IMG/VR virus record: IMGVR_UViG_3300018432_000001 | Location: 32,001-96,000 of that record | DNA: 64,000 nucleotides | Strand: one strand, 5' to 3' | Source: a virus | Shown here: one piece after another, positions 32,071-57,095 of the stretch | Numbering within the stretch: the first letter of the stretch is position 1 | How the letters are laid out: each line of letters begins with the position of its first letter | Translations under genes and position numbers: made by a program | The notes under the pieces: generated by a model | Seen by the model: the letters and a program-made list of their open reading frames with translations, nothing else | What the model was told of the DNA's origin: nothing | Databases searched by the model: none

Positions 32071-32071
32071 G

Positions 32072-32153
32072 TGGACCGGGCAGGATTTGAACCTGCGATG
32101 CGTGATGCAGCTGGTTTACAGCCAGCCCCTTTTGGCCGCTCGGGCACCGATCC
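32072..32153 (-). tRNA. tRNA-Tyr(GTA)
   Basis: Acceptor GGATCGG/CCGGTCC+A; anticodon arm GCTGG-CTGTAAA-CCAGC; long variable arm; GGTTCAAATCC; no encoded CCA. Confidence 0.92.
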
Positions 32154-46651: not shown

Positions 46652-48181
46652 ATGGCTGAGACTTCTACCGTCCGAGGCCGGATGGCCCGGTTCACGCGCC
46701 TGGACGACATGGGTCGTCCGCTGTACGGACCGGGCAACCAGGCCGTCACCAAGGGCATCATTTCGGTCACCTACACCCCGAACGTCACCGAAGGCGAAGC
46801 CACCTCGGTCACGAACTTCGCGGGCGAACAGTGCATCTCGGCCCCCGCGCCGTGCGCGACCATCGACAACTGGACCGTCGGCGTCGAATTCTGCGCCGTC
46901 GACCCTTGTGTCGTCCTGATGATCTACCCGTCCTGGATTCCGATTTATGACGATTTCGGGTCGATCAAGGGTTTCCAGATCGTCGGCGGCCTGTCGTGCG
47001 ACGTCGGTTTCGCCCTGGAGATCTGGGGCCAGATCGGATCGGCAGGGTCGGCCATCCAGTGCGGACCGGGCGCCGTCTCGGGCTCCACGTACTGGCTCGC
47101 GCCGCGCCTCGTGGGCGCCGCTCCCGGCGAAATCACGATCAGTAACGAAGCGACTTCATTCACGTTCAACGGGACCACCACGAGCCCCGTGGGTTGGCGC
47201 CGTGGCCCGTACCTGGTCGACATCGTCAACGGCGTGCCCTCGGTCCTGCGCGACCCGGTCGACTCGGCCGCGCAGCTCGTGGAGTTCACCACGCAGGTGC
47301 GTCCGCCCGAGCCCACCAACGGCTGCGTGGAGCTGCCGCGACCGGTCCCGGAGGAAGCGAGCGTCATCATCGACCGCGTTCCCACCGACGACACCGGCAT
47401 GTGCGCGCGCTTGATCATCGACAACCATGGATTTGGCCCGGTGACGGTGAACTGGGGCGACGGTTCGGACCCCGAGACCAGCGGCGACTGCTCGACCATC
47501 ACCCACTGCTACGCCACGCCGGGCACCTACACGGTGTGCGTCGCCGACCAGCAGACTCCGGCAATCTCGACCTGCCGCGACATCGTCGTGCCGATGCCTG
47601 CCGACCAGCCGACCATGACGCTGGCCGTCGACCCGACCGACGACATGTGTGTCATCGCCACCATCGACATGCCGCCGCAGTCCGATGGACGCGTCGAAGT
47701 CACCTGGGGCGACGACACTGCCGCGTCCACGGTCGAAATCACGCCGGGCACGCCAGTGGAAGTGCGCCACTGCTACGCCACGCCGGGCGTCTACACCGTC
47801 CGTGCCGTGCGCGTGGAGCAGCCGGACTACTACACCACCGCAACCGTCGTGGTGCCGGTCATCGCCAACCCCATGGTGTCGGCCGCCGTCGACGGCCAGG
47901 TGGTCACGCTGACCGTTGACAACAACGGCAACGGGCTGACCACTGTGGAGTGGGGCGACGGCACCACGACCTCCGGTCCGAACACGGACGGAGGCAACGT
48001 CCAGCACACCTACGCCGCCGACGGCACCTACTCGATCACGGTCACTTCGGTGTCCAACCCACTCTCGACCACCACGGTGCAGGTCACCATCGGTGCCGCT
48101 CCAGGCCTCCAGGCCGGAGTCGATGCCGATGAAGGCGATGTGTCGGGCATGACGGTCGAAGTCACCTGGAACAACGCCTAG
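46652..48181 (+). CDS. major tail (tube) protein with three PKD/Ig domains plus a C-terminal half domain
   Basis: VRGRMARFTRLDD.G, FCAVDP, FALEIW, WRRGPY; three WGD...HxY...GxYT repeats. Confidence 0.85.
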   Translation: MAETSTVRGRMARFTRLDDMGRPLYGPGNQAVTKGIISVTYTPNVTEGEATSVTNFAGEQCISAPAPCATIDNWTVGVEFCAVDPCVVLMIYPSWIPIYDDFGSIKGFQIVGGLSCDVGFALEIWGQIGSAGSAIQCGPGAVSGSTYWLAPRLVGAAPGEITISNEATSFTFNGTTTSPVGWRRGPYLVDIVNGVPSVLRDPVDSAAQLVEFTTQVRPPEPTNGCVELPRPVPEEASVIIDRVPTDDTGMCARLIIDNHGFGPVTVNWGDGSDPETSGDCSTITHCYATPGTYTVCVADQQTPAISTCRDIVVPMPADQPTMTLAVDPTDDMCVIATIDMPPQSDGRVEVTWGDDTAASTVEITPGTPVEVRHCYATPGVYTVRAVRVEQPDYYTTATVVVPVIANPMVSAAVDGQVVTLTVDNNGNGLTTVEWGDGTTTSGPNTDGGNVQHTYAADGTYSITVTSVSNPLSTTTVQVTIGAAPGLQAGVDADEGDVSGMTVEVTWNNA

Positions 48182-48191
48182 GAGGGCTGCC

Positions 48192-49493
48192 ATGACCGTC
48201 ACCATTCAATGGGACGCCGATGCTCCATTGACGGCCCAGCCCGACGCGGGCACCGCAACGAAGGTGTACACGACTGCAGGGCCCGGAACCGTGACCATCA
48301 CCGACGAGGCCATCGGCGGTGACAGCGTCACGCTGGACTACACCGTGCCGCTGGAAATGACCACAGTGGTGCCGACTCCGAACACGGCCGATTCGGCCGG
48401 GACCGCCGAAGAGCGCACCATCTCGGTCGCTGGCGAGGGCTTCCCGGCCAGCATGGCGGGCACCGTGGCCATCGCCACGGGCGTGCCCGGCGCGTTCGGG
48501 ACCACGCTGGTGTCGACCTCGGCCACCACCAACACCGCCGGGATCTTCACCGACGTCGACGTGGTGGTGCCAAGCGATGCTGCCGCCGGTGACTACCACC
48601 TGGAAGTCAGCTTCGGGGCCATCGTGGACCTGTCGGCTGCGATCACGCTCACCAACACCGAGCTCGCTGCGCCGACGTCGCTCGCGTCGCCGTCGCAGAC
48701 CTCGACCACGGTCACCCTGACCTGGGCGGCAGTGACCGACGCCGAAACGTATGTGGTCCGTTCCTCGCCTGCAGGCGCTGGTACTTGGGTCGAGCGTGCC
48801 CCGGTGGCGGTTCTGACCGACACGGTCTCGGCGCTCACCGCGTTGACGAGCTACGACTTCCAGGTCAAGGCGCAGGCCACGGGCTCGACCGATTCGCCGT
48901 GGTCGACCACGCTCACGCAGTCCACGACCGCGCAGCCGGTGCTGGACGCACCGGCGAACCCATCGGCGGGCACGCCGACGACCACGACCATCCCGTTCTC
49001 CTGGGATGCGGTCACCGACGCCGAAACGTACACCGTCGAATGGCGGATCAGCCCGGCCGGAGCCTGGACCGCAATCGACAGCATCGCCACCACCAACACC
49101 ACGGTCAGCGGCCTGGACCCGAATACGACGTACGACCTGCGGGTCAAGGCCGTCGCTGATGGATTCACGGACTCTCCGTTCTCTGCAGTCGTCACCGAGT
49201 CCACCGATTCGCTGGGCACGTTGGCCGCTCCGACCGGTATCGCCAGCCCGTCGCAGACGGCCACGACGATCGACCTCACGTGGGACGCGGTTCCCAATGC
49301 CACCAGCTACGGCATCGAACGGTCGCCTGCGGGGGCCGGGACGTGGGTCGAAGTGCAGACCGCTGGGACGAACGCTGCGACGGTGACCGGCATGGTCGCC
49401 AGCACTTCATATGACTTCCGGATTTCGGCTCGCGCCGCCGGATGGGTCGACTCGGACTGGTCGGCCACGTTCACCCAAGCCACCACCGCTTAA
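48192..49493 (+). CDS. Ig/FN3-array protein (half PKD + Ig + 3 FN3)
   Basis: AGGAGG RBS; three APxx...WxAV...Y...L...TxYD.xVxA repeats. Confidence 0.85.
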   Translation: MTVTIQWDADAPLTAQPDAGTATKVYTTAGPGTVTITDEAIGGDSVTLDYTVPLEMTTVVPTPNTADSAGTAEERTISVAGEGFPASMAGTVAIATGVPGAFGTTLVSTSATTNTAGIFTDVDVVVPSDAAAGDYHLEVSFGAIVDLSAAITLTNTELAAPTSLASPSQTSTTVTLTWAAVTDAETYVVRSSPAGAGTWVERAPVAVLTDTVSALTALTSYDFQVKAQATGSTDSPWSTTLTQSTTAQPVLDAPANPSAGTPTTTTIPFSWDAVTDAETYTVEWRISPAGAWTAIDSIATTNTTVSGLDPNTTYDLRVKAVADGFTDSPFSAVVTESTDSLGTLAAPTGIASPSQTATTIDLTWDAVPNATSYGIERSPAGAGTWVEVQTAGTNAATVTGMVASTSYDFRISARAAGWVDSDWSATFTQATTA

Positions 49494-49511: not shown

Positions 49512-51737
49512 GTGCCTATCGTGTTGCAGCCTGTCGACCAGCTCGCGCACAACGAGCTGGCGCAGCGGCTCGCCTGCTGGGCCAAAGCCGAAGACGGCTT
49601 CACCGACAATGCCCTGATCTACCAGTCCTGCTGTGTCTCCCCCACCGGGCAGACGCTGGGCCGGTGGGTCGTTGACGAAGCGCTGTGCGCCGAGTACGGG
49701 CCGTTCGACTTCACCGCCAACGAAGGCGACGTTATTGTCTGCCCGACGCCGGGTTCGGCCGAGTACACCAACTACTACATCTACGACGACGACGTCCACG
49801 CTATCGACCCGAACACCTGCATCGAGCAGCTGCTCGCGGCGCCGACAGGCCTGAACTCGCCCACGCAGGGACCCACCACCGTGGACCTGGCGTGGGACGC
49901 CGTCCCTGACGCTCAGCGGTACGTCGTCCGCTGGTCTTTGGCTGGTCAGGACGACTGGACGGAGCTGGCGCCCACGTTCCTGCTGACCGCCGAGGTCACG
50001 GGCCTGACCGACGAAACGAGCTACGACTTCCAGGTGCAGGCGATCGCCGTGGGCTTCGTCGACTCGCCGTGGTCGGCCACGCTCACGCAGGCCACCACCT
50101 CGCTGGGGACGCTCGCAGCGCCTACGGGGCTCGCGACCCCATCGGCCACCGGTACCACCATCGACGTCACCTGGAACGCCGTCGACAACGCCACCGGGTA
50201 CACCGTGGAATGGTCGCCCACCGGCGCTGGAACGTGGACTCCGGCGACCACGGCCACGAACTCGTACACGATCACCGGTCTGACCTTGGACACGTCCTAC
50301 GACATCCGCGTCAAGGCGACCGCACCGGGCTGGACCGACTCGCCGTATTCGGCCCAGATCATCGGCTCTACCGAGGCGCAGCTCGCCACTCCGGCGGGGC
50401 TCGCGTCGCCCTCGCAGACCGGCCTGACCGTGAACCTCACGTGGTCGGCGGTCACCGACGCCAACGAGTACGTCGTGCGCTGGTCTCCGGCCGGTGCGGG
50501 CACCTGGACTGAACTGGCGCCAGTAGGCATCACTAGCGCGACGGTGTCCGGTTTGACCGCCTCTACCAGTTACGACTTCCAGGTCAAGGCCCAGGCCGAG
50601 GACTTCGTCGACTCCGCGTGGAGCACCACGCTGACCCAGTCCACGGCGGCTGTCCTGGCGACGCCGGTACTGACGAGCCCATCGCAGACGGACACCACGG
50701 TCGCTTTGACCTGGGGTGCAGTGCCGAATGCGACGTCGTACACCGTGCAGTGGTCGCTGGCGCCGTCCGGTTCCTGGAACGCCATGCCGGACGTGTCGGG
50801 TACCGGGCAGACCGTCACGGGCCTGACCGCTGCCACGTCCTACCGGTTCCGGGTGCTGGCGCACGCTGCCGGTTGGACCGACTCCGCGTGGTCGGCCGAG
50901 CTGACTCAGGCGACCGATGCCGCCCTGGCAGCGCCGACCGGGGTGAACAGCCCATCGCAGACCGCCTCGACGATTGACGTCGCATGGACTGCCGTGGCGG
51001 GCGCGGACGGGTACACCGTCGAATGGTCCCCGGCGGGTGCGGGCACGTGGACGCCTGCGACGAACGCGGACACCACATACACGATCATCGGGCTCGCGGC
51101 CGACACCGCCTACGACATCCGCATCAAGGCCACCGCGACCGGGTTTGCCGACTCGGCGTACTCGACGGTGCTCACGCAGTCGACGCTGGAAGTGCAGCTC
51201 GCTGCACCGACCGGGTTCGCGAGCCCCTCGCAGACCGACACGAGCATCAACACGTCCTGGGACGCCGTTGACGACGCCGAGTCCTACGTCGTGGAGTGGT
51301 CCCCGGCGGGTGCAGGCACGTGGACCCCGGTCCCCGCTGCCACGACTACCCAGGAGATCACGGGTCTCTCAGCCGCCACCAACTACGACCTTCGGGTCAA
51401 GGCGATCGCAGACGACCACATCGACTCGACCTACGCAACGCTCACGCAGGAAACGCATGGGCCGCTGCTCGCGCCGACCGGTCTCGCCAGTCCCTCCCAG
51501 ACGTCGACCACGGTCGACCTCACCTGGAACGCGGCCATCAACGCCGATTTCTACGTCGTGCGCTGGTCGCCTGCGGGGGCCGGGACCTGGACTGAGGAAC
51601 CGCAGGTGTCGGGGACCTCGGACACCGTCTCGGGGTTGACGGCCTCGACTTCATATGACTTCCAAGTCAAAACCATTGCGGACGGTTTCGCCGACTCTGG
51701 CTGGTCCGGCTCGCTTACCCAGTCAACTACCGCCTAG
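49512..51737 (+). CDS. anchor domain + 7 FN3 virion decoration protein
   Basis: GAGGAG RBS; seven ~90-aa FN3 repeats. Confidence 0.85.
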   Translation: MPIVLQPVDQLAHNELAQRLACWAKAEDGFTDNALIYQSCCVSPTGQTLGRWVVDEALCAEYGPFDFTANEGDVIVCPTPGSAEYTNYYIYDDDVHAIDPNTCIEQLLAAPTGLNSPTQGPTTVDLAWDAVPDAQRYVVRWSLAGQDDWTELAPTFLLTAEVTGLTDETSYDFQVQAIAVGFVDSPWSATLTQATTSLGTLAAPTGLATPSATGTTIDVTWNAVDNATGYTVEWSPTGAGTWTPATTATNSYTITGLTLDTSYDIRVKATAPGWTDSPYSAQIIGSTEAQLATPAGLASPSQTGLTVNLTWSAVTDANEYVVRWSPAGAGTWTELAPVGITSATVSGLTASTSYDFQVKAQAEDFVDSAWSTTLTQSTAAVLATPVLTSPSQTDTTVALTWGAVPNATSYTVQWSLAPSGSWNAMPDVSGTGQTVTGLTAATSYRFRVLAHAAGWTDSAWSAELTQATDAALAAPTGVNSPSQTASTIDVAWTAVAGADGYTVEWSPAGAGTWTPATNADTTYTIIGLAADTAYDIRIKATATGFADSAYSTVLTQSTLEVQLAAPTGFASPSQTDTSINTSWDAVDDAESYVVEWSPAGAGTWTPVPAATTTQEITGLSAATNYDLRVKAIADDHIDSTYATLTQETHGPLLAPTGLASPSQTSTTVDLTWNAAINADFYVVRWSPAGAGTWTEEPQVSGTSDTVSGLTASTSYDFQVKTIADGFADSGWSGSLTQSTTA

Positions 51738-51750
51738 TTAGGAGATAGCC

Positions 51751-52638
51751 ATGCCTATCGTGCTCCAGCCGATCGATCAGATCGCTAAAAAGGAGTTGGC
51801 TCAGCAGCTGGCCTGCTGGGCGCGGGCCGCCAACGGCCTGACCGACGTCGCCGTCCAGTACGGTACCTGCTGCGTCTCGCCGACCGGCGAGACGTTGGGG
51901 CGTTGGACGATCCCCAACGACCTCTGCACCACGTACGGTGAGCTTCCGTTCACCGGAAATAACGGGGAGACGATCGTCTGCCCGCCCGTCGGGTCGGCCG
52001 AGTACGTCTCGTACTACATCTACGACGAAGACGTCGACCCGATCGACGTGGACACCTGCACGCCGCTGGTGGCGCTCGATGCGCCGACTGCGCTCGCGGC
52101 CGGGACCCCGACCGACACCACCATCCCGCTGACCTGGGTCGCCTCGGCGAACGCCAACGGATACACGGTGTCGTACTCCTCGGACTCGGGCACGACCTGG
52201 CTGGAGGTACAGGCCACCGGCAGCCCGTTCACGCTGACGGGGCTGACGCCGGAGACGACGTACACCATCCGCATCCGCGCGACCGACTCGACGAATACGT
52301 TCGCGAAGTCGCCGTGGACGAGCACGGTCACCGCCACCACGGAGTCTTCGCTGCCTGAGCTGGACGTCCCAGAGAACCTGGCGACCGGTACTCCAGCGGC
52401 GACCGAGATGCCGCTGACCTGGGATGCGGTCACGAACGCCGTGTCGTACCACGTCCAGTACAAGACGACGGCATCGTCGACGTGGCTGGACTTCGCGACC
52501 GAGCCGGTCACGCCGTCGACCACGGTCACGGGCCTGGTGACCGCAACCAGCTACGACTTCCGGGTGCGCGCCAACGCCGACGACATCTCGTTCTCGGACT
52601 CGGACTACAGCGCGCCGGTCACCGAGACCACCGCGTAA
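51751..52638 (+). CDS. anchor domain + 2 FN3 virion decoration protein
   Basis: N-terminal ~105 aa closely matches 49512 gene; two FN3. Confidence 0.85.
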   Translation: MPIVLQPIDQIAKKELAQQLACWARAANGLTDVAVQYGTCCVSPTGETLGRWTIPNDLCTTYGELPFTGNNGETIVCPPVGSAEYVSYYIYDEDVDPIDVDTCTPLVALDAPTALAAGTPTDTTIPLTWVASANANGYTVSYSSDSGTTWLEVQATGSPFTLTGLTPETTYTIRIRATDSTNTFAKSPWTSTVTATTESSLPELDVPENLATGTPAATEMPLTWDAVTNAVSYHVQYKTTASSTWLDFATEPVTPSTTVTGLVTATSYDFRVRANADDISFSDSDYSAPVTETTA

Positions 52639-52721: not shown

Positions 52722-53474
52722 ATGCCGAGTATCAAGTGGTACCCGGACCGTACGGTACCGCGCAAGGGCAAGGCCCGCGTCATCGATGTGCCGCAGGCGT
52801 ACACGCTGTCCTTCGGGGATGGCAACACGATCGCGAAGGACGCCGACGACGTCTACCCGTACACCTATGCGGCGGCAGGCCCGTACGCGTTGAACGTGAC
52901 GCTGGTCGGCGAGACCGAACCGGCGGCGTCGCTGCTGCTGAACGTGCTGGACGCAACGGTCCCGAACGTGACTATCTCGGCTCCGGCCAACACGCAGAAG
53001 ATCCGGGTGGCGTTCAACGACCCCGAGATGCCCGTCGTGGGCCGCTACACGGTGGACTGGACGTCGACGGAGAGCGAAGATGTGCTCGCCGAGCCGGACA
53101 AGTACGTGGAGCGGCTCTTCGCGCCGGGCACGTATCCGATCCGGGTCACCGACCACTGGTCGGGACTGTCGGTGGTGCAAGACGTGGTGGTGGCGGCGGT
53201 GGCTGACGATCCGGGTTTTAGCCTCGCCGAGGACACGTCCGATGTCTCGCGGATGACAGCAGAGCTCGAAGTGCTCGCGGTTCCCTCGGCAGAACCCGAA
53301 GAGACTCTCACCGTCGACTGGGGCGATGGCCAAACCGAGACGCTCGCCGCCATCGTGGGCACAACGGCCTCACATGCTTACGCCTATGACGATGAGTACA
53401 TGGTGGAGCTCGCGTACACCGCTGAGCCCGCGAAGAACACCACGCAGTTCGTGTGGCTGCCGTTCACGGATTAG
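52722..53474 (+). CDS. PKD-domain protein (3 Ig-like domains)
   Basis: FGDG..YTY..AGPY; VDW..PGTY; VDWGDG..SHAY; GGAGG RBS. Confidence 0.8.
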   Translation: MPSIKWYPDRTVPRKGKARVIDVPQAYTLSFGDGNTIAKDADDVYPYTYAAAGPYALNVTLVGETEPAASLLLNVLDATVPNVTISAPANTQKIRVAFNDPEMPVVGRYTVDWTSTESEDVLAEPDKYVERLFAPGTYPIRVTDHWSGLSVVQDVVVAAVADDPGFSLAEDTSDVSRMTAELEVLAVPSAEPEETLTVDWGDGQTETLAAIVGTTASHAYAYDDEYMVELAYTAEPAKNTTQFVWLPFTD

Positions 53475-53521: not shown

Positions 53522-53524
53522 TTG

Positions 53525-53598
53525 TCGCGGGGAGCGGATTTGAACCGCCGACCTTCAGGTTATGAGCCTGTTGAGCTACCGAACTGCTCCACCCCGCT
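53525..53598 (-). tRNA. tRNA-Met(CAT), initiator-like
   Basis: AGCGGGGTGGAGCAG...CTCATAA...GGTTCAAATCC...CCCCGCGA; unpaired 1:72; no encoded CCA. Confidence 0.88.
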
Positions 53599-53752: not shown

Positions 53753-53792
53753 ATGAATGACGTGGGTTTTTATTGCTAAGGAGGTCAGGCTG

Positions 53793-55361
53793 ATGGCGAT
53801 CGCCCAGTACTCCGACCTGTTCTGGTATCCCTCAGGCACGCTGGCCACCGGCATCCAGGTACGCATCTTCGAACTCAACGACAACGTGTTCGCCCCGCTC
53901 TTCTCCGACCCCGCCGGAACCATTCCCCTTGCCAACCCGATGACCACCAGCGCCACCGGCACCATCTCGTTCTACGCCGAGCAGGGCGAGTACTGGATGC
54001 ACGCCGACTCCGAGAGTTTCCGGATCGGCGTCGGCCTGTCCCCGGTGACCCCGGAGACGATCGCCGCCATCGAAGCGGACGTGGCTGCGCTGCAAACCGA
54101 CATGACAGCGGTCGAAGGCGACGTCACGGGCCTGCAAACCGCCGTAGCTACTGCGCAGGGCGACATCACGGCACTTCAGGGTGATGTAACGGCAGCGCAA
54201 GGGGACATTACTGCCTTGGAAGGGAACGTCGGAACCCTCCAGACCGACATGACCACCGCGCAGGGCGACATCACCGCGCTGCAGACCGGTTTGGGCACCG
54301 CGCAGGGCGACATCACCGCGCTGGAAGGCGACATGGCTACCGCGCAGGGCGACATCACCGCGCTGGAAGGCGACATGGCTACCGCGCAGGGAGACATCAC
54401 CGCGCTGGAAGCGGCCATCGAGGTCACGGAAAAGGCGGCAGCATCCACACTGTCGACAGGCGTCTCTGCCGGTGGTGAGTTGAACGTCAACGGTGTGAGT
54501 TCTTCGGCGATTGATATCGCTCCGCTGGTCGGGTACATCACGTCGTTCGACATCGATCCGTTCAATCCTGCCATCACCCGCATCGAATACCCCGGCGGGA
54601 CTGTGGAGATGGACGCGGGCGCGCTCTCGCGGACCGCAACGGCGTGGTTGATGGACGTCAACCAGGTGATTACGCAGCAGGCGACGCCGCCCACGAATTC
54701 GCAGCGTCGCACCCACATCTTCTTGGGTATCACCGCGCAAGTCGGCGGCGTCATCATCGTCGACCAGACGTTGCAGACCATTCTGCAACAACCCGCCAAC
54801 CAACTGTCCGACCTGCTGAACTCGCTCGGCGCGTTCAACATCTCGGGGAACATCATCTCTGCCAACGGCGCGAACCTCATGATCAACCAAACGGCTGGAA
54901 CGATGTTCGCCCAGTCGTTCAACCACTTCATGGGCCCCGTGCAGACCAACGACCCGCATGTGAACACGACGATGGCGCAGACCCCGGCGAACTTCCGGTA
55001 CGCCACCCGCGACCCGAACACGCCGTTCGGGCTGCTTCGCAACACCATCGACGTCGCGAACTACGACAACGCAGGCGTCATCACGCCGATCGGCGGCGGC
55101 GCGAACTCCGCGACGATTCACCGCGTGTACCTGTTCGCGAACAACACCGCGAACGAGCAGATCGCCATCCAGTACGGGCAGAGCGTCTATGCGTCGCTGT
55201 CCGCAGCCGTCAACGCCATCGGTTCGGGCACGTTCGTGCAGAACCCGCTCATGAACGCCGCTGCCCTGCTGGGGCACATCTGCGTCATCCGGACCGCAAC
55301 CAGCCTCGCCGACCCCGCGCAAGCCATCTTCGAAACCGCCGGAAAGTTCGACACCCCGTAA
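53793..55361 (+). CDS. coiled-coil fibre / whisker-like virion protein
   Basis: AAGGAGG RBS; 14-aa repeats TAQGDITALEGDMA; globular N- and C-domains. Confidence 0.8.
   Translation: MAIAQYSDLFWYPSGTLATGIQVRIFELNDNVFAPLFSDPAGTIPLANPMTTSATGTISFYAEQGEYWMHADSESFRIGVGLSPVTPETIAAIEADVAALQTDMTAVEGDVTGLQTAVATAQGDITALQGDVTAAQGDITALEGNVGTLQTDMTTAQGDITALQTGLGTAQGDITALEGDMATAQGDITALEGDMATAQGDITALEAAIEVTEKAAASTLSTGVSAGGELNVNGVSSSAIDIAPLVGYITSFDIDPFNPAITRIEYPGGTVEMDAGALSRTATAWLMDVNQVITQQATPPTNSQRRTHIFLGITAQVGGVIIVDQTLQTILQQPANQLSDLLNSLGAFNISGNIISANGANLMINQTAGTMFAQSFNHFMGPVQTNDPHVNTTMAQTPANFRYATRDPNTPFGLLRNTIDVANYDNAGVITPIGGGANSATIHRVYLFANNTANEQIAIQYGQSVYASLSAAVNAIGSGTFVQNPLMNAAALLGHICVIRTATSLADPAQAIFETAGKFDTP
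54151..54410 (+). repeat. 42-bp tandem coding repeats
   Basis: accgcgcagggcgacatcaccgcgctggaaggcgacatggct, two exact copies plus several degenerate. Confidence 0.85.
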
Positions 55362-55372
55362 GGAGATAGGTC

Positions 55373-56212
55373 ATGCCGGTCATCAACGTCGCGCCGACCG
55401 TCGCGGACGGTGAGGGAAACGCGCTGTACCCGTGCGAGCCGTGGCCGATCAACCCTGTGTGCTGCCCAGGGTGGCCTGCCGACCCGGCCGAGTGGGACCC
55501 CGCGCATTATGACGCTCAGTGGCTGGCCACGGTCGAGCTCTGGCGCGCGGTCGCCGGAGTCATCGGGCTGTGCCGGACCACTGAGCTGCCGTGTCTGGAC
55601 CAGTGCGTGGCGCGCCCGCTGGAGGCGTACTGGATGCGTCCCTACCGGGACGTCAACGGCGCCTGGTTCAACTCCAAGTGCGGATGCCGCGATACGTGCT
55701 CGTGCTCGCAGCTGTGCACGGTAACCCTCCAGGGGCCGGTGTACTCGATTGAGTCGGTCACCGTCGACGGCGTCGCCCTGGAGAGCGATGAGTGGAAGCT
55801 GCTCACCAACAACCGGCTCGCCCGCTGCGGCGGATGCTGGCCCGCCTGCCAGGACTACTGCACCGAGGACGGTCTCGTCGTCACCTACCTGCGCGGCATT
55901 CCGCCAGGCCTGGACGCCATCCGCGCCGTCAGCATCCTCGCCTGCCGCCGACTCCAAGAATGCCCACCAAGTGGCGGCGACTGCGGCACACTGCCCTCCG
56001 GCGTCACCAGCATCAACCGTGAAGGGCTGAACATGCAGCTGGACTCGACCATCGGGGCCGGGGAAGACGGCGTCATCCACTTCACCGGCATCGCCCGGGT
56101 TGATCGATGGATCGCTTCGATCAACCCCTACGGCGTCACCTCGAACCCATCCGTGTGGTCGCCCGACGTCGACACCTCGCAGGTCTGGCGCACCGGCACG
56201 GTGACGCCATGA
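55373..56212 (+). CDS. head-to-tail adaptor
   Basis: PCEPWP, GAWFN..CGC...CSC, LQGPVYSIESVTVDG, WPACQD, LPSGVTSINREG, TGIARVDRWI..INP. Confidence 0.8.
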   Translation: MPVINVAPTVADGEGNALYPCEPWPINPVCCPGWPADPAEWDPAHYDAQWLATVELWRAVAGVIGLCRTTELPCLDQCVARPLEAYWMRPYRDVNGAWFNSKCGCRDTCSCSQLCTVTLQGPVYSIESVTVDGVALESDEWKLLTNNRLARCGGCWPACQDYCTEDGLVVTYLRGIPPGLDAIRAVSILACRRLQECPPSGGDCGTLPSGVTSINREGLNMQLDSTIGAGEDGVIHFTGIARVDRWIASINPYGVTSNPSVWSPDVDTSQVWRTGTVTP

Positions 56213-56433
56213 TCCCGTTGATCGTGAGTCTGGTCTACACCGTTGCCATGCTGTTCACCGCACGCATGCTCTACCGCAACGCCGTCACCAGCGGCTTCGA
56301 CGTCACCACTCCCGCGCGCCTATTCATGGGCGTCGGCTTCGCCCTGATCTATGCGCTGGCATGGCCGCTGCTGCTGCTGGGCATCGGGGCGGTGCGTTTC
56401 ATCGTGCACCGCGCCAAGGGAGACGTCGCGTGA
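56209..56433 (+). CDS. small two-TM membrane protein
   Basis: ATGA/GTGA overlaps on both sides; two hydrophobic helices. Confidence 0.65.
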   Translation: MIPLIVSLVYTVAMLFTARMLYRNAVTSGFDVTTPARLFMGVGFALIYALAWPLLLLGIGAVRFIVHRAKGDVA

Positions 56434-57095
56434 ACGTCCTGGACTACCTCGAAGACGAGCTGCTGTCGTGCCTGTGCTCGATGCTGCGCACCGAAGGGCG
56501 TCCAGCTTGCGAGTGCCATCACTTCGGCGGTGACGTGCCGCCAGTCGGGGACCGCTGCCAAGCCAACACTGCCGGAGAGAACGGTCAAGTCTGGGTTCGC
56601 CGCATCTCGCAGGCGATCGAGGTCGATCCCGAAGACATCACGTTCGGTGGCCTCCCGTGCGCGAGTTCCTGGCAGGCGCAGATCGAGCTGGGCATCTACC
56701 GGTGCATCACCGCCATCCCCGACGACAACGGGAATGCACCATCACCGGCGGCCTACGACGCCGACCGGGATCTGCTCGTCGCTGATCGGGCGACCCTCGC
56801 GCAGGTGCTGTGCTGCTGGCCACTGGTCGGTGAGGCGCCCACTCCGGTGCCCTTCGACCTGCCTATCTCGGTGATCGCGGCGCAGATCCTGCCACTGGGG
56901 CCCACCGGAGGGTGTGCCGGTTCGATCTTGACGCTCGTTGTCAACGCGCCGCTCATCGTCGAAGAGCCCGTGGCGCAGCTGGTCGCCGGTGTCGATGCCG
57001 ATCCTGCCGACCCGAGTGGTCAGACCGCCGTGGTCACCTGGCGAAACGAACCTGCGGAGGAGGTCTTCATTTCGCGTCCAGCCGGAGGTGGTTAA
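56430..57095 (+). CDS. tail terminator/neck-like protein with C-terminal half-PKD tag
   Basis: GQVWVR, ELGIYRC, PLGPTGGCAG; tail LVAGVDADPADPSGQTAVVTWRN. Confidence 0.7.
   Translation: MNVLDYLEDELLSCLCSMLRTEGRPACECHHFGGDVPPVGDRCQANTAGENGQVWVRRISQAIEVDPEDITFGGLPCASSWQAQIELGIYRCITAIPDDNGNAPSPAAYDADRDLLVADRATLAQVLCCWPLVGEAPTPVPFDLPISVIAAQILPLGPTGGCAGSILTLVVNAPLIVEEPVAQLVAGVDADPADPSGQTAVVTWRNEPAEEVFISRPAGGG

Follow-up and report, generated by a model that had tools for sequence, protein, structure and literature searches.

The stretch of DNA analysed here, referred to as the window, covers 64,000 nucleotides (bases 32001-96000) of IMGVR_UViG_3300018432_000001, an IMG/VR virus record of 142,477 bp from an uncultured phage, which carries direct terminal repeats and is rated complete. 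The analysis concerns two consecutive genes of its virion module. Gene 1 codes for the major tail (tube) protein and gene 2 for a protein with Ig-like and fibronectin type III (FN3) domains. A PKD-like domain is divided between the two, with a short piece at the C-terminus of the tail protein, here named the tag, and the remainder at the N-terminus of the gene 2 product, named the socket or catcher. The features of the locus are the following.

46652-48181, plus strand: gene 1, major tail (tube) protein of 509 amino acids (phrog_792 'major tail protein', E 3.3e-55)
47357-47596, 47609-47860 and 47867-48094, plus strand: the complete PKD-like repeats 1-3 of the tail protein
48107-48178, plus strand: tag 1, formed by the 24 C-terminal residues of the tail protein and corresponding to strands A-B (a beta-hairpin) of a fourth PKD-like domain
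48179-48191, plus strand: junction, with TAG at 48179-48181, AGGAGG at 48180-48185 and a 6-nt spacer, followed by ATG at 48192
48192-49493, plus strand: gene 2, 433 amino acids, with the socket, one Ig-like and three FN3 domains
48192-48356, plus strand: socket (catcher), comprising residues 1-55 of gene 2 and corresponding to strands C-G of the split PKD-like domain
48357-49493, plus strand: arm, with one Ig-like domain ahead of three FN3 domains (Pfam fn3, three stretches, E 1.4e-20)

The N-terminal tube domain of the tail protein spans about residues 1-235. In a tblastn search the protein matched 793 phage records, and 29 of 30 among the matches listed were annotated as major tail protein. 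A profile of 81 positions (own-repeat profile) was built from 21 PKD repeats of the window phage and six relatives. It gave three full-length matches on the tail protein, and repeat 3 was also recognised as PKD by Pfam (E 1.5e-13). Tag 1 covers positions 4-23 of the profile and residues 3-53 of gene 2 cover positions 29-80; once tag 1 and the start of gene 2 are joined, positions 4-80 are covered as a single domain. BLASTP of the joined split domain against repeat 1 of the tail protein produced an alignment crossing the junction (78 residues, E 0.002).

A second profile was made from the A-B halves of 14 intact domains only, with no tag included. Ten tags scored 17-30 bits against this A-B profile, tag 1 itself reaching 17.2 bits. 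The best of 200 shuffles per tag remained at or below 11.6 bits, and none of the 200 attained the real score (0/200 for tag 1 as well), so that the likeness of the tags to a half-domain is not due to chance. The initial annotation, made from the letters of the window, had described three complete PKD repeats and the A-B start of a fourth in gene 1, the missing part of this fourth repeat at the start of gene 2, and one Ig and three FN3 domains in the rest of gene 2. The whole of this anatomy was recovered with the profiles, Pfam and, for the Ig-like domain, structure prediction with AlphaFold2 (AF2).

The initiator methionine of gene 2 is the first residue of strand C, and about a dozen representatives of 50%-identity clusters likewise begin with the socket at residue 1. 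A search of the genome with the tag profile detected no tag-like piece in gene 2 itself. All socket-type proteins seen carry a lysine at the 'HxY' position, which is occupied by histidine or glutamine in the intact PKD-like members of the subfamily. The Ig-like domain of the arm was predicted by AF2 with a predicted local distance difference test (pLDDT) score of ~95. Behind the conserved socket, the arm architecture of the relatives ranges over 356-719 amino acids, one to six Ig domains and one to three FN3 domains. This wide variation, as read from the sequences, fits exchangeable cassettes.

The gap between gene 1 and gene 2 is 10 nucleotides (nt) long, and gene 2 lies in the +1 frame. The size of the gap had been given correctly in the initial annotation, but the AGGAGG motif assigned to it does not lie wholly inside, as it overlaps the last two bases of the TAG stop codon. 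No start codon is present in the frame of gene 2 between a TGA at 48150 and the ATG at 48192. Being out of frame with gene 1 and provided with a Shine-Dalgarno (SD) sequence and an ATG of its own, gene 2 can be translated alone, as had been proposed, and these signals are kept in relatives.

Related loci were obtained from IMG/VR pattern scans, from an exhaustive HMMER search in which the first 150 residues of gene 2 were compared with 1.8 billion cluster representatives, and from look-up of the contigs holding the matches. A broader IMG/VR scan with socket patterns returned only 10 loci, mostly ones already collected, which indicates that the family is small. The same cut was found in 12 distinct loci, with an identity of about 39-96% for gene 2. 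Stop codon, gap and frame of gene 2 at these loci (L numbers) are given below.

Window, L003 and L006: TAG, 10 nt, gene 2 in the +1 frame
L004 (L004:7528-7539): TAG, 9 nt, gene 2 in frame; a 95%-identical relative with only TAG between the genes
L005: TAG, 14 nt, gene 2 in the +2 frame
L007: TAG followed by TAA, 15 nt, gene 2 in frame
L008: TAG, 16 nt, with TAA in the +1 frame just after TAG, gene 2 in the +1 frame
L009: TAA, 13 nt, gene 2 in the +1 frame
L011: TAA, 17 nt, gene 2 in the +2 frame
L010, L014 and L022: ATGA overlaps, gene 2 in the +2 frame

Across the 12 loci the gap thus ranges from -4 to +17 nt, the stop codon is TAG, TAA or TGA, and gene 2 is found in frame +1, 0 or +2. In every related locus a purine-rich ribosome-binding site is located 5-11 nt 5' of the ATG, and this ATG codes for the first residue of strand C. 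Every socket-starting gene examined comes directly after a tag-ending gene. The ratio of nonsynonymous to synonymous polymorphism (pN/pS) among close relatives was 0.14-0.80 for the tag and 0.06-0.54 for the socket, and was below 1 in 15 of 15 pairs for each half, with a synonymous divergence of up to 0.6 in these pairs. To judge from these ratios, both halves are under purifying selection.

As the window belongs to a single metagenome-derived record, the split might be blamed on a sequencing or assembly error, or on a mutation that has recently inactivated a formerly uninterrupted gene. The initial annotation had asked whether homologous phages display a conserved split or a fusion. Independently assembled sequences from IMG/VR, JGI, ENA and Logan, however, share the cut down to 39% identity, with both halves under purifying selection and the start signal conserved. 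Since the cut is kept in 12 loci, it is old; a sequencing error and a recent pseudogene are excluded, and virtually no credence is left to this explanation.

Programmed recoding would make the split only apparent: part of the products would be fused by read-through, or by a +1 shift at the sense codon that immediately precedes TAG. A rare shift of this type at the alanine codon before TAG had been considered in the initial annotation. Several features of the locus would suit it. L003, L006 and the window have no stop codon in the frame of gene 2 for 13 codons 5' of the ATG, a stretch that overlaps the end of gene 1, so that a +1 shift would yield a sensible loop; the genes of L004 are in frame and parted by TAG only; and frameshifted Ig-type extensions of tube proteins are well established (SPP1 gp17.1*). 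In the relatives, however, gene 2 occupies three different frames behind three different stop codons, TAG is directly followed by TAA in L007, a TAA interrupts the +1 frame in L008, and ATGA overlaps are found in L010, L014 and L022. No slippery site is common to the loci, and the SD sequence and ATG are kept everywhere, the frame of gene 2 offering no other start. The variation of frames and stops, additional stops included, next to a constant SD and ATG is a strong argument against a programmed +1 shift. Neither frameshifting nor read-through could work for the family as a whole, which implies that the two proteins are made separately. Recoding is considered very improbable, and the shift at the alanine codon was abandoned.

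Intact versions of the split domain were found among the relatives. The middle proteins of L010 and L014, 185-190 amino acids long, contain one domain in which a stretch matched by the tag profile (19.7 bits) directly adjoins a stretch matched by the socket profile (52.5 bits). The tail-protein homologue P0041 ends with a fourth PKD repeat that aligns across the junction and places the cut in the B-C loop; the P0041 locus, where this last domain is intact, contains neither an orphan tag nor a socket-starting gene. An intact comparator also occurs in the window, outside the joint:

53211-53471, plus strand: intact PKD-like domain, the third domain of a 250-amino-acid protein (52722-53474)

The initial annotation had pointed to the protein at 52722-53474 as holding an intact domain of the same fold. 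This was confirmed by the own-repeat profile (33.7 bits) and by a full-length position in the multiple alignment with the subfamily, but direct comparison shows it to be only weakly similar to the split domain (E 0.22 for the joined domain against the whole protein in BLASTP). The intact comparators of L010, L014 and L012 are much better matches.

The fold of the joined domain was predicted with AF2. As the two genes of L004 are in frame with only TAG between them, a natural joined sequence could be used, and its in-frame read-through, with TAG read as Q, was submitted as a single chain. Tag-only rows were left out of the folding alignment; strands B and C look alike. A model comprising PKD repeat 3, the split domain and the Ig-like domain had a mean pLDDT of 87, with the tag forming two strands. 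The 87-residue split domain alone was predicted with seven strands (pLDDT 91, predicted template modelling score 0.80), and the socket scored 83-97 over both models. Residues 2-86 of the split-domain model superpose on whole FN3 and PKD domains with VIA Z scores of 8.2-9.0. For PKD domains, PKD1 of 4l9d (Z 8.2, 76 residues, root mean square deviation 2.4 A) and PKD1 of 6aem (Z 8.2) were matched over 76-77 residues. FN3 domains (Z up to 9.0) score on par with PKD domains, so that the structure agrees with the fold class and cannot separate PKD from FN3. A Foldseek search with the three-domain model returned generic multi-Ig proteins only. As a prediction, the joined model speaks for the compatibility of the halves, not for their binding.

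Tags were also found away from the tail protein. The second copy in the window phage resides in a protein of the neck module.

56430-57095, plus strand: neck-module protein of 221 amino acids (phrog_810)
56979-57047, plus strand: tag 2, an A-B hairpin like that of tag 1, situated in this protein ~15 residues from its C-terminus (tag profile 37.8 bits, E 1.6e-10)

Tag 2 is the sole further match of the tag profile in the 142-kb genome, and it scored 22.7 bits against the intact A-B profile. The neck tag is kept in L006, L007 and L008. The homologue in L009 (L009:8221-8838) has no tag and retains the short C-terminal strand that follows the tag elsewhere, so that the tag behaves as an inserted, portable piece. 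By comparison of these sequences the neck tag looks like an insertion gained in some lineages. The gene after the neck protein has no socket, and recoding can therefore not explain tag 2. The neck-module protein gave no match by tblastn against cultured phages and no Pfam match. A supposed homologue in the P0041 locus proved to be unrelated.

The tail proteins of L007, L008 and L009 carry a tandem pair of tags. In four loci a second, independent cut site was identified directly behind the WGD motif of a PKD domain: the tail protein stops there, keeping strands A-B-C, and the next gene takes up the remaining strands from the HTY motif on.

L010:2368-5971: second-cut locus
L014:2368-5974: second-cut locus
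L022:870-3473: second-cut locus
L028:2517-5446: second-cut locus, with two A-B-C pieces in tandem on the tail protein

In three of the four, the next gene codes for an adaptor of 185-190 amino acids in which a second-type socket and one intact domain are combined with two tandem tags of the first type; it is followed via an ATGA overlap by a socket-bearing arm gene. This makeup implies branched chains, leading from the tube protein over the adaptor to two arms. The protein P0007 also starts with a second-type socket.

A fused relative, P0015 (L027:1-1518), is encoded by one open reading frame that is truncated at its 5' end and open to the end of a 2.1-kb contig. The end of PKD repeat 1 and all of PKD repeat 2 of the tail protein (37% identity, E 2e-15) are joined in it to an arm like that of gene 2, with the order FN3-Ig-Ig-FN3 (49% identity to gene 2, E 3e-37). 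Judged by these alignments, P0015 is a classical 'Rosetta stone' fusion, according to which the arm belongs with the tail protein.

The explanation considered likely, which fits all the comparative and modelling evidence, is that the split halves fold together in trans and dock the Ig/FN3 arm on the tail; the binding between the two chains and its stoichiometry are what we infer from this evidence. The split would go back to an old gene fission at the B-C loop of the last PKD-like domain of the tube protein, which would have kept the 24-residue A-B hairpin as an exposed C-terminal tag. Translation of gene 2 would start independently at its own ribosome-binding site and would probably be coupled to the termination of gene 1. 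Such translational coupling is suggested by stop and start codons that are close or overlapping, and it would match the amounts of both proteins. A socket devoid of strands A and B should present an open sheet edge and an exposed core. The hairpin of the tag would add to this edge, cover the core and rebuild one seven-stranded sandwich, by which the arm of one Ig-like and three FN3 domains would be fastened non-covalently outside the tail tube. Through its own tag, the neck-module protein would bring this arm to the head-tail junction as well. In this manner, a tag of 24 residues would replace the duplication of a 1.3-kb arm gene, and arms could be exchanged with the tube protein untouched. 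The two ends of the hairpin lie side by side, which would explain how a tag can follow a C-terminus, occur in tandem copies or be placed inside a protein close to its end. Ig-like domains of phages are generally regarded as mediating weak adhesion to surfaces or glycans, and the arms may have the same role.

Some of the results weigh against complementation in trans. Pfam found nothing significant on the joined split domain, the best match being Big_3_5 (E 0.15). Gene 1 is identified as the tube protein by its PHROG match and GenBank annotation, and no solved homologue turned up when the sequences of the PDB were searched with the tail-protein profile. In the three-domain model the strands of the tag (pLDDT 75-78) are less confident than the socket (83-95), and a complete fold was partly to be expected from a single chain with intact homologues in the alignment. 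Tags also outnumber sockets, with two tagged proteins in the window phage and tandem tags in relatives for one socket gene per genome. This excess, together with a neck-protein tag that has no socket gene adjoining it, would be in line with halves that are not partners at all. The socket would then be completed by self-swapping or by an unrelated virion protein, and the tag would bind something else or serve as a spacer. Against this stand the strict adjacency and co-occurrence of tag-ending and socket-starting genes in all loci examined, and the position of the cut, which matches the intact domains exactly. Gene 2 moreover has no tag-like piece of its own, the fused relative ties the arm to the tail protein, and the second cut site follows the same complementary logic. 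Halves that are not partners are thus judged unlikely, with a modest chance left to this reading.

Complementation in trans could also be followed by a covalent lock, for instance an isopeptide bond as in engineered Tag/Catcher pairs. The lysine which replaces the usual histidine of 'HxY' in the socket-type proteins, and is absent from the intact versions, would be compatible with such a bond, as would the conserved acidic residues in the tag. However, the same acidic residues are found in intact, uncut domains of the subfamily, so that no special role is needed for them, and PKD domains are not known to form isopeptide bonds. A covalent lock is rated as improbable. Where the initial annotation spoke of a tag/catcher pair, nothing in the analysis supports the covalent sense of this term.

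Beyond the docking of one arm on the tube, the loci might together represent a natural kit of portable half-domain tags with two orthogonal cut sites, in which tags on the tube, the neck and adaptors would allow branched and exchangeable arms to be added after core assembly. The chances of this wider proposal are seen as evenly balanced.

Decoration of tail tubes with Ig-like domains is known from SPP1 gp17.1*, the C-terminal domain of lambda gpV and T5 pb6, where it is achieved by fusion or programmed frameshift. In these phages as here, the major tail protein of a siphophage bears Ig, FN3 or PKD domains at its C-terminus, exposed on the outside of the tube, and P0015 is of this ordinary kind. 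In contrast, the domain of the window phage is cut between separately translated genes and relies neither on a peptide bond nor on recoding. The pattern of SPP1 gp17.1*, namely a constant frame with a shift site and a downstream open reading frame without start signals, was not found in the relatives.

In chaperone-usher pili (Fim, Pap, Caf1), the pilin fold lacks its G strand, which is donated by an N-terminal extension with the help of a periplasmic chaperone and an usher, and a polymer forms. The likeness drawn in the initial annotation holds in a loose sense: an incomplete Ig-like fold would be completed here too by strands of another polypeptide, but these are a two-strand hairpin A-B (or A-B-C at the second cut site) donated from the C-terminus, not a single N-terminal strand. 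No chaperone is evident for the arm joint, no search having been aimed at chaperone or usher genes. No polymer is expected from an arm protein that has a socket and no tag. The engineered SpyTag/SpyCatcher pair is derived from CnaB domains and locked by an isopeptide bond. It resembles the present system in that a short portable tag and the rest of an Ig-like domain reconstitute one fold; it differs in its chemistry, no isopeptide bond being indicated here, and in the fold, which is PKD/FN3-like here.

The closest parallel in mechanism and size is the BppU-BppA pair of phage Tuc2009. A 25-residue C-terminal hairpin of BppU completes a beta-sheet of the 57-residue domain 2 of BppA, and the crystal structure revealed a composite Ig-like domain, resembling titin Ig, that fastens a carbohydrate-binding accessory to the virion (PMC4742702). 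Both systems combine a C-terminal hairpin with an incomplete beta-sandwich on a second protein, and hairpin and socket are of nearly the same size (PMC4742702). Correspondingly, the tail protein of the window phage ends in a 24-residue A-B tail without a domain of its own, and gene 2 lacks exactly A-B and has no upstream start. The composite domain is titin-like in Tuc2009 and PKD-like here, the likeness being one of mechanism and size, as taken from the paper (PMC4742702). Moreover, the joint of Tuc2009 is in the baseplate and its socket at the C-terminus of the accessory protein, whereas here tail tube and neck are concerned and the socket is at the extreme N-terminus. The portable tag (two host proteins, tandem copies), the second cut site and adaptors with socket and tags are further differences. 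Completion of an incomplete Ig domain in trans, natural and non-covalent, is also known for myomesin and obscurin-like-1, where it is mechanically stable (~135 pN) (PMC5222588). Those are eukaryotic muscle proteins in which a linker sequence is donated, with no history of gene fission (PMC5222588).

A search of the literature for a split PKD/Ig domain on a tail tube found none. The principle is already known. Its use on the tail tube and at the neck is new, and so is its occurrence in the PKD subfamily; portable tags, tags in tandem, a second cut site and adaptors are new as well. If the proposed docking is true, it would constitute a third route to Ig-like decoration of siphophage tail tubes, besides fusion and programmed frameshifting. 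It would explain how one arm gene serves several virion sites and would permit arms to be swapped between phages with the tube protein unchanged. The two cut sites would provide short natural tags and sockets, possibly orthogonal, for placing cargo on phage tails or scaffolds, and with the portable kit, engineered Tag/Catcher pairs would have a modular equivalent in nature. Annotators would be warned against dismissing very short 'orphan' half-domains at the ends of genes as errors, since these can be functional joints.

The region of the window around the two genes is the virion module of a siphophage, distant kin of actinobacteriophages. Besides the genes already described, it includes the following.

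39228: portal
43385: capsid (phrog_777)
Between capsid and major tail protein: phrog_779 protein
Between major tail protein and fibre-like protein: Ig/FN3-rich genes
53757-55361: fibre-like protein (phrog_16641)
55373-56212: head-tail adaptor (phrog_783)
57095: protein of 160 amino acids, between the phrog_810 protein and two chaperone-sized genes
58740: tape measure, 3' of the two chaperone-sized genes

In Arthrobacter phage SilentRX, the tail-protein gene is likewise ahead of the adaptor and the gene order of the neck module matches that of the window; its tail protein has no Ig extension. The fibre-like protein, placed between the Ig/FN3 genes and the adaptor, contains a long run of near-identical short coiled-coil repeats. 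Two tRNA genes are encoded on the minus strand, a tRNA-Tyr at 32071-32153 and a tRNA-Met (CAT) at 53524-53598, the latter lying antisense among the virion genes, with the gene of the PKD protein on one side and that of the fibre-like protein on the other.

The consecutive genes at 49512 and 51751 share a Cys-containing N-terminal domain of ~105 residues (49512-49835 and 51751-52070), for which no family match was obtained. It is followed by seven FN3 domains in the former and by two in the latter. Similar Cys-containing starts are also present in L008 and in L027, where the gene concerned is the one after P0015. This N-terminal domain may be another virion-docking module.

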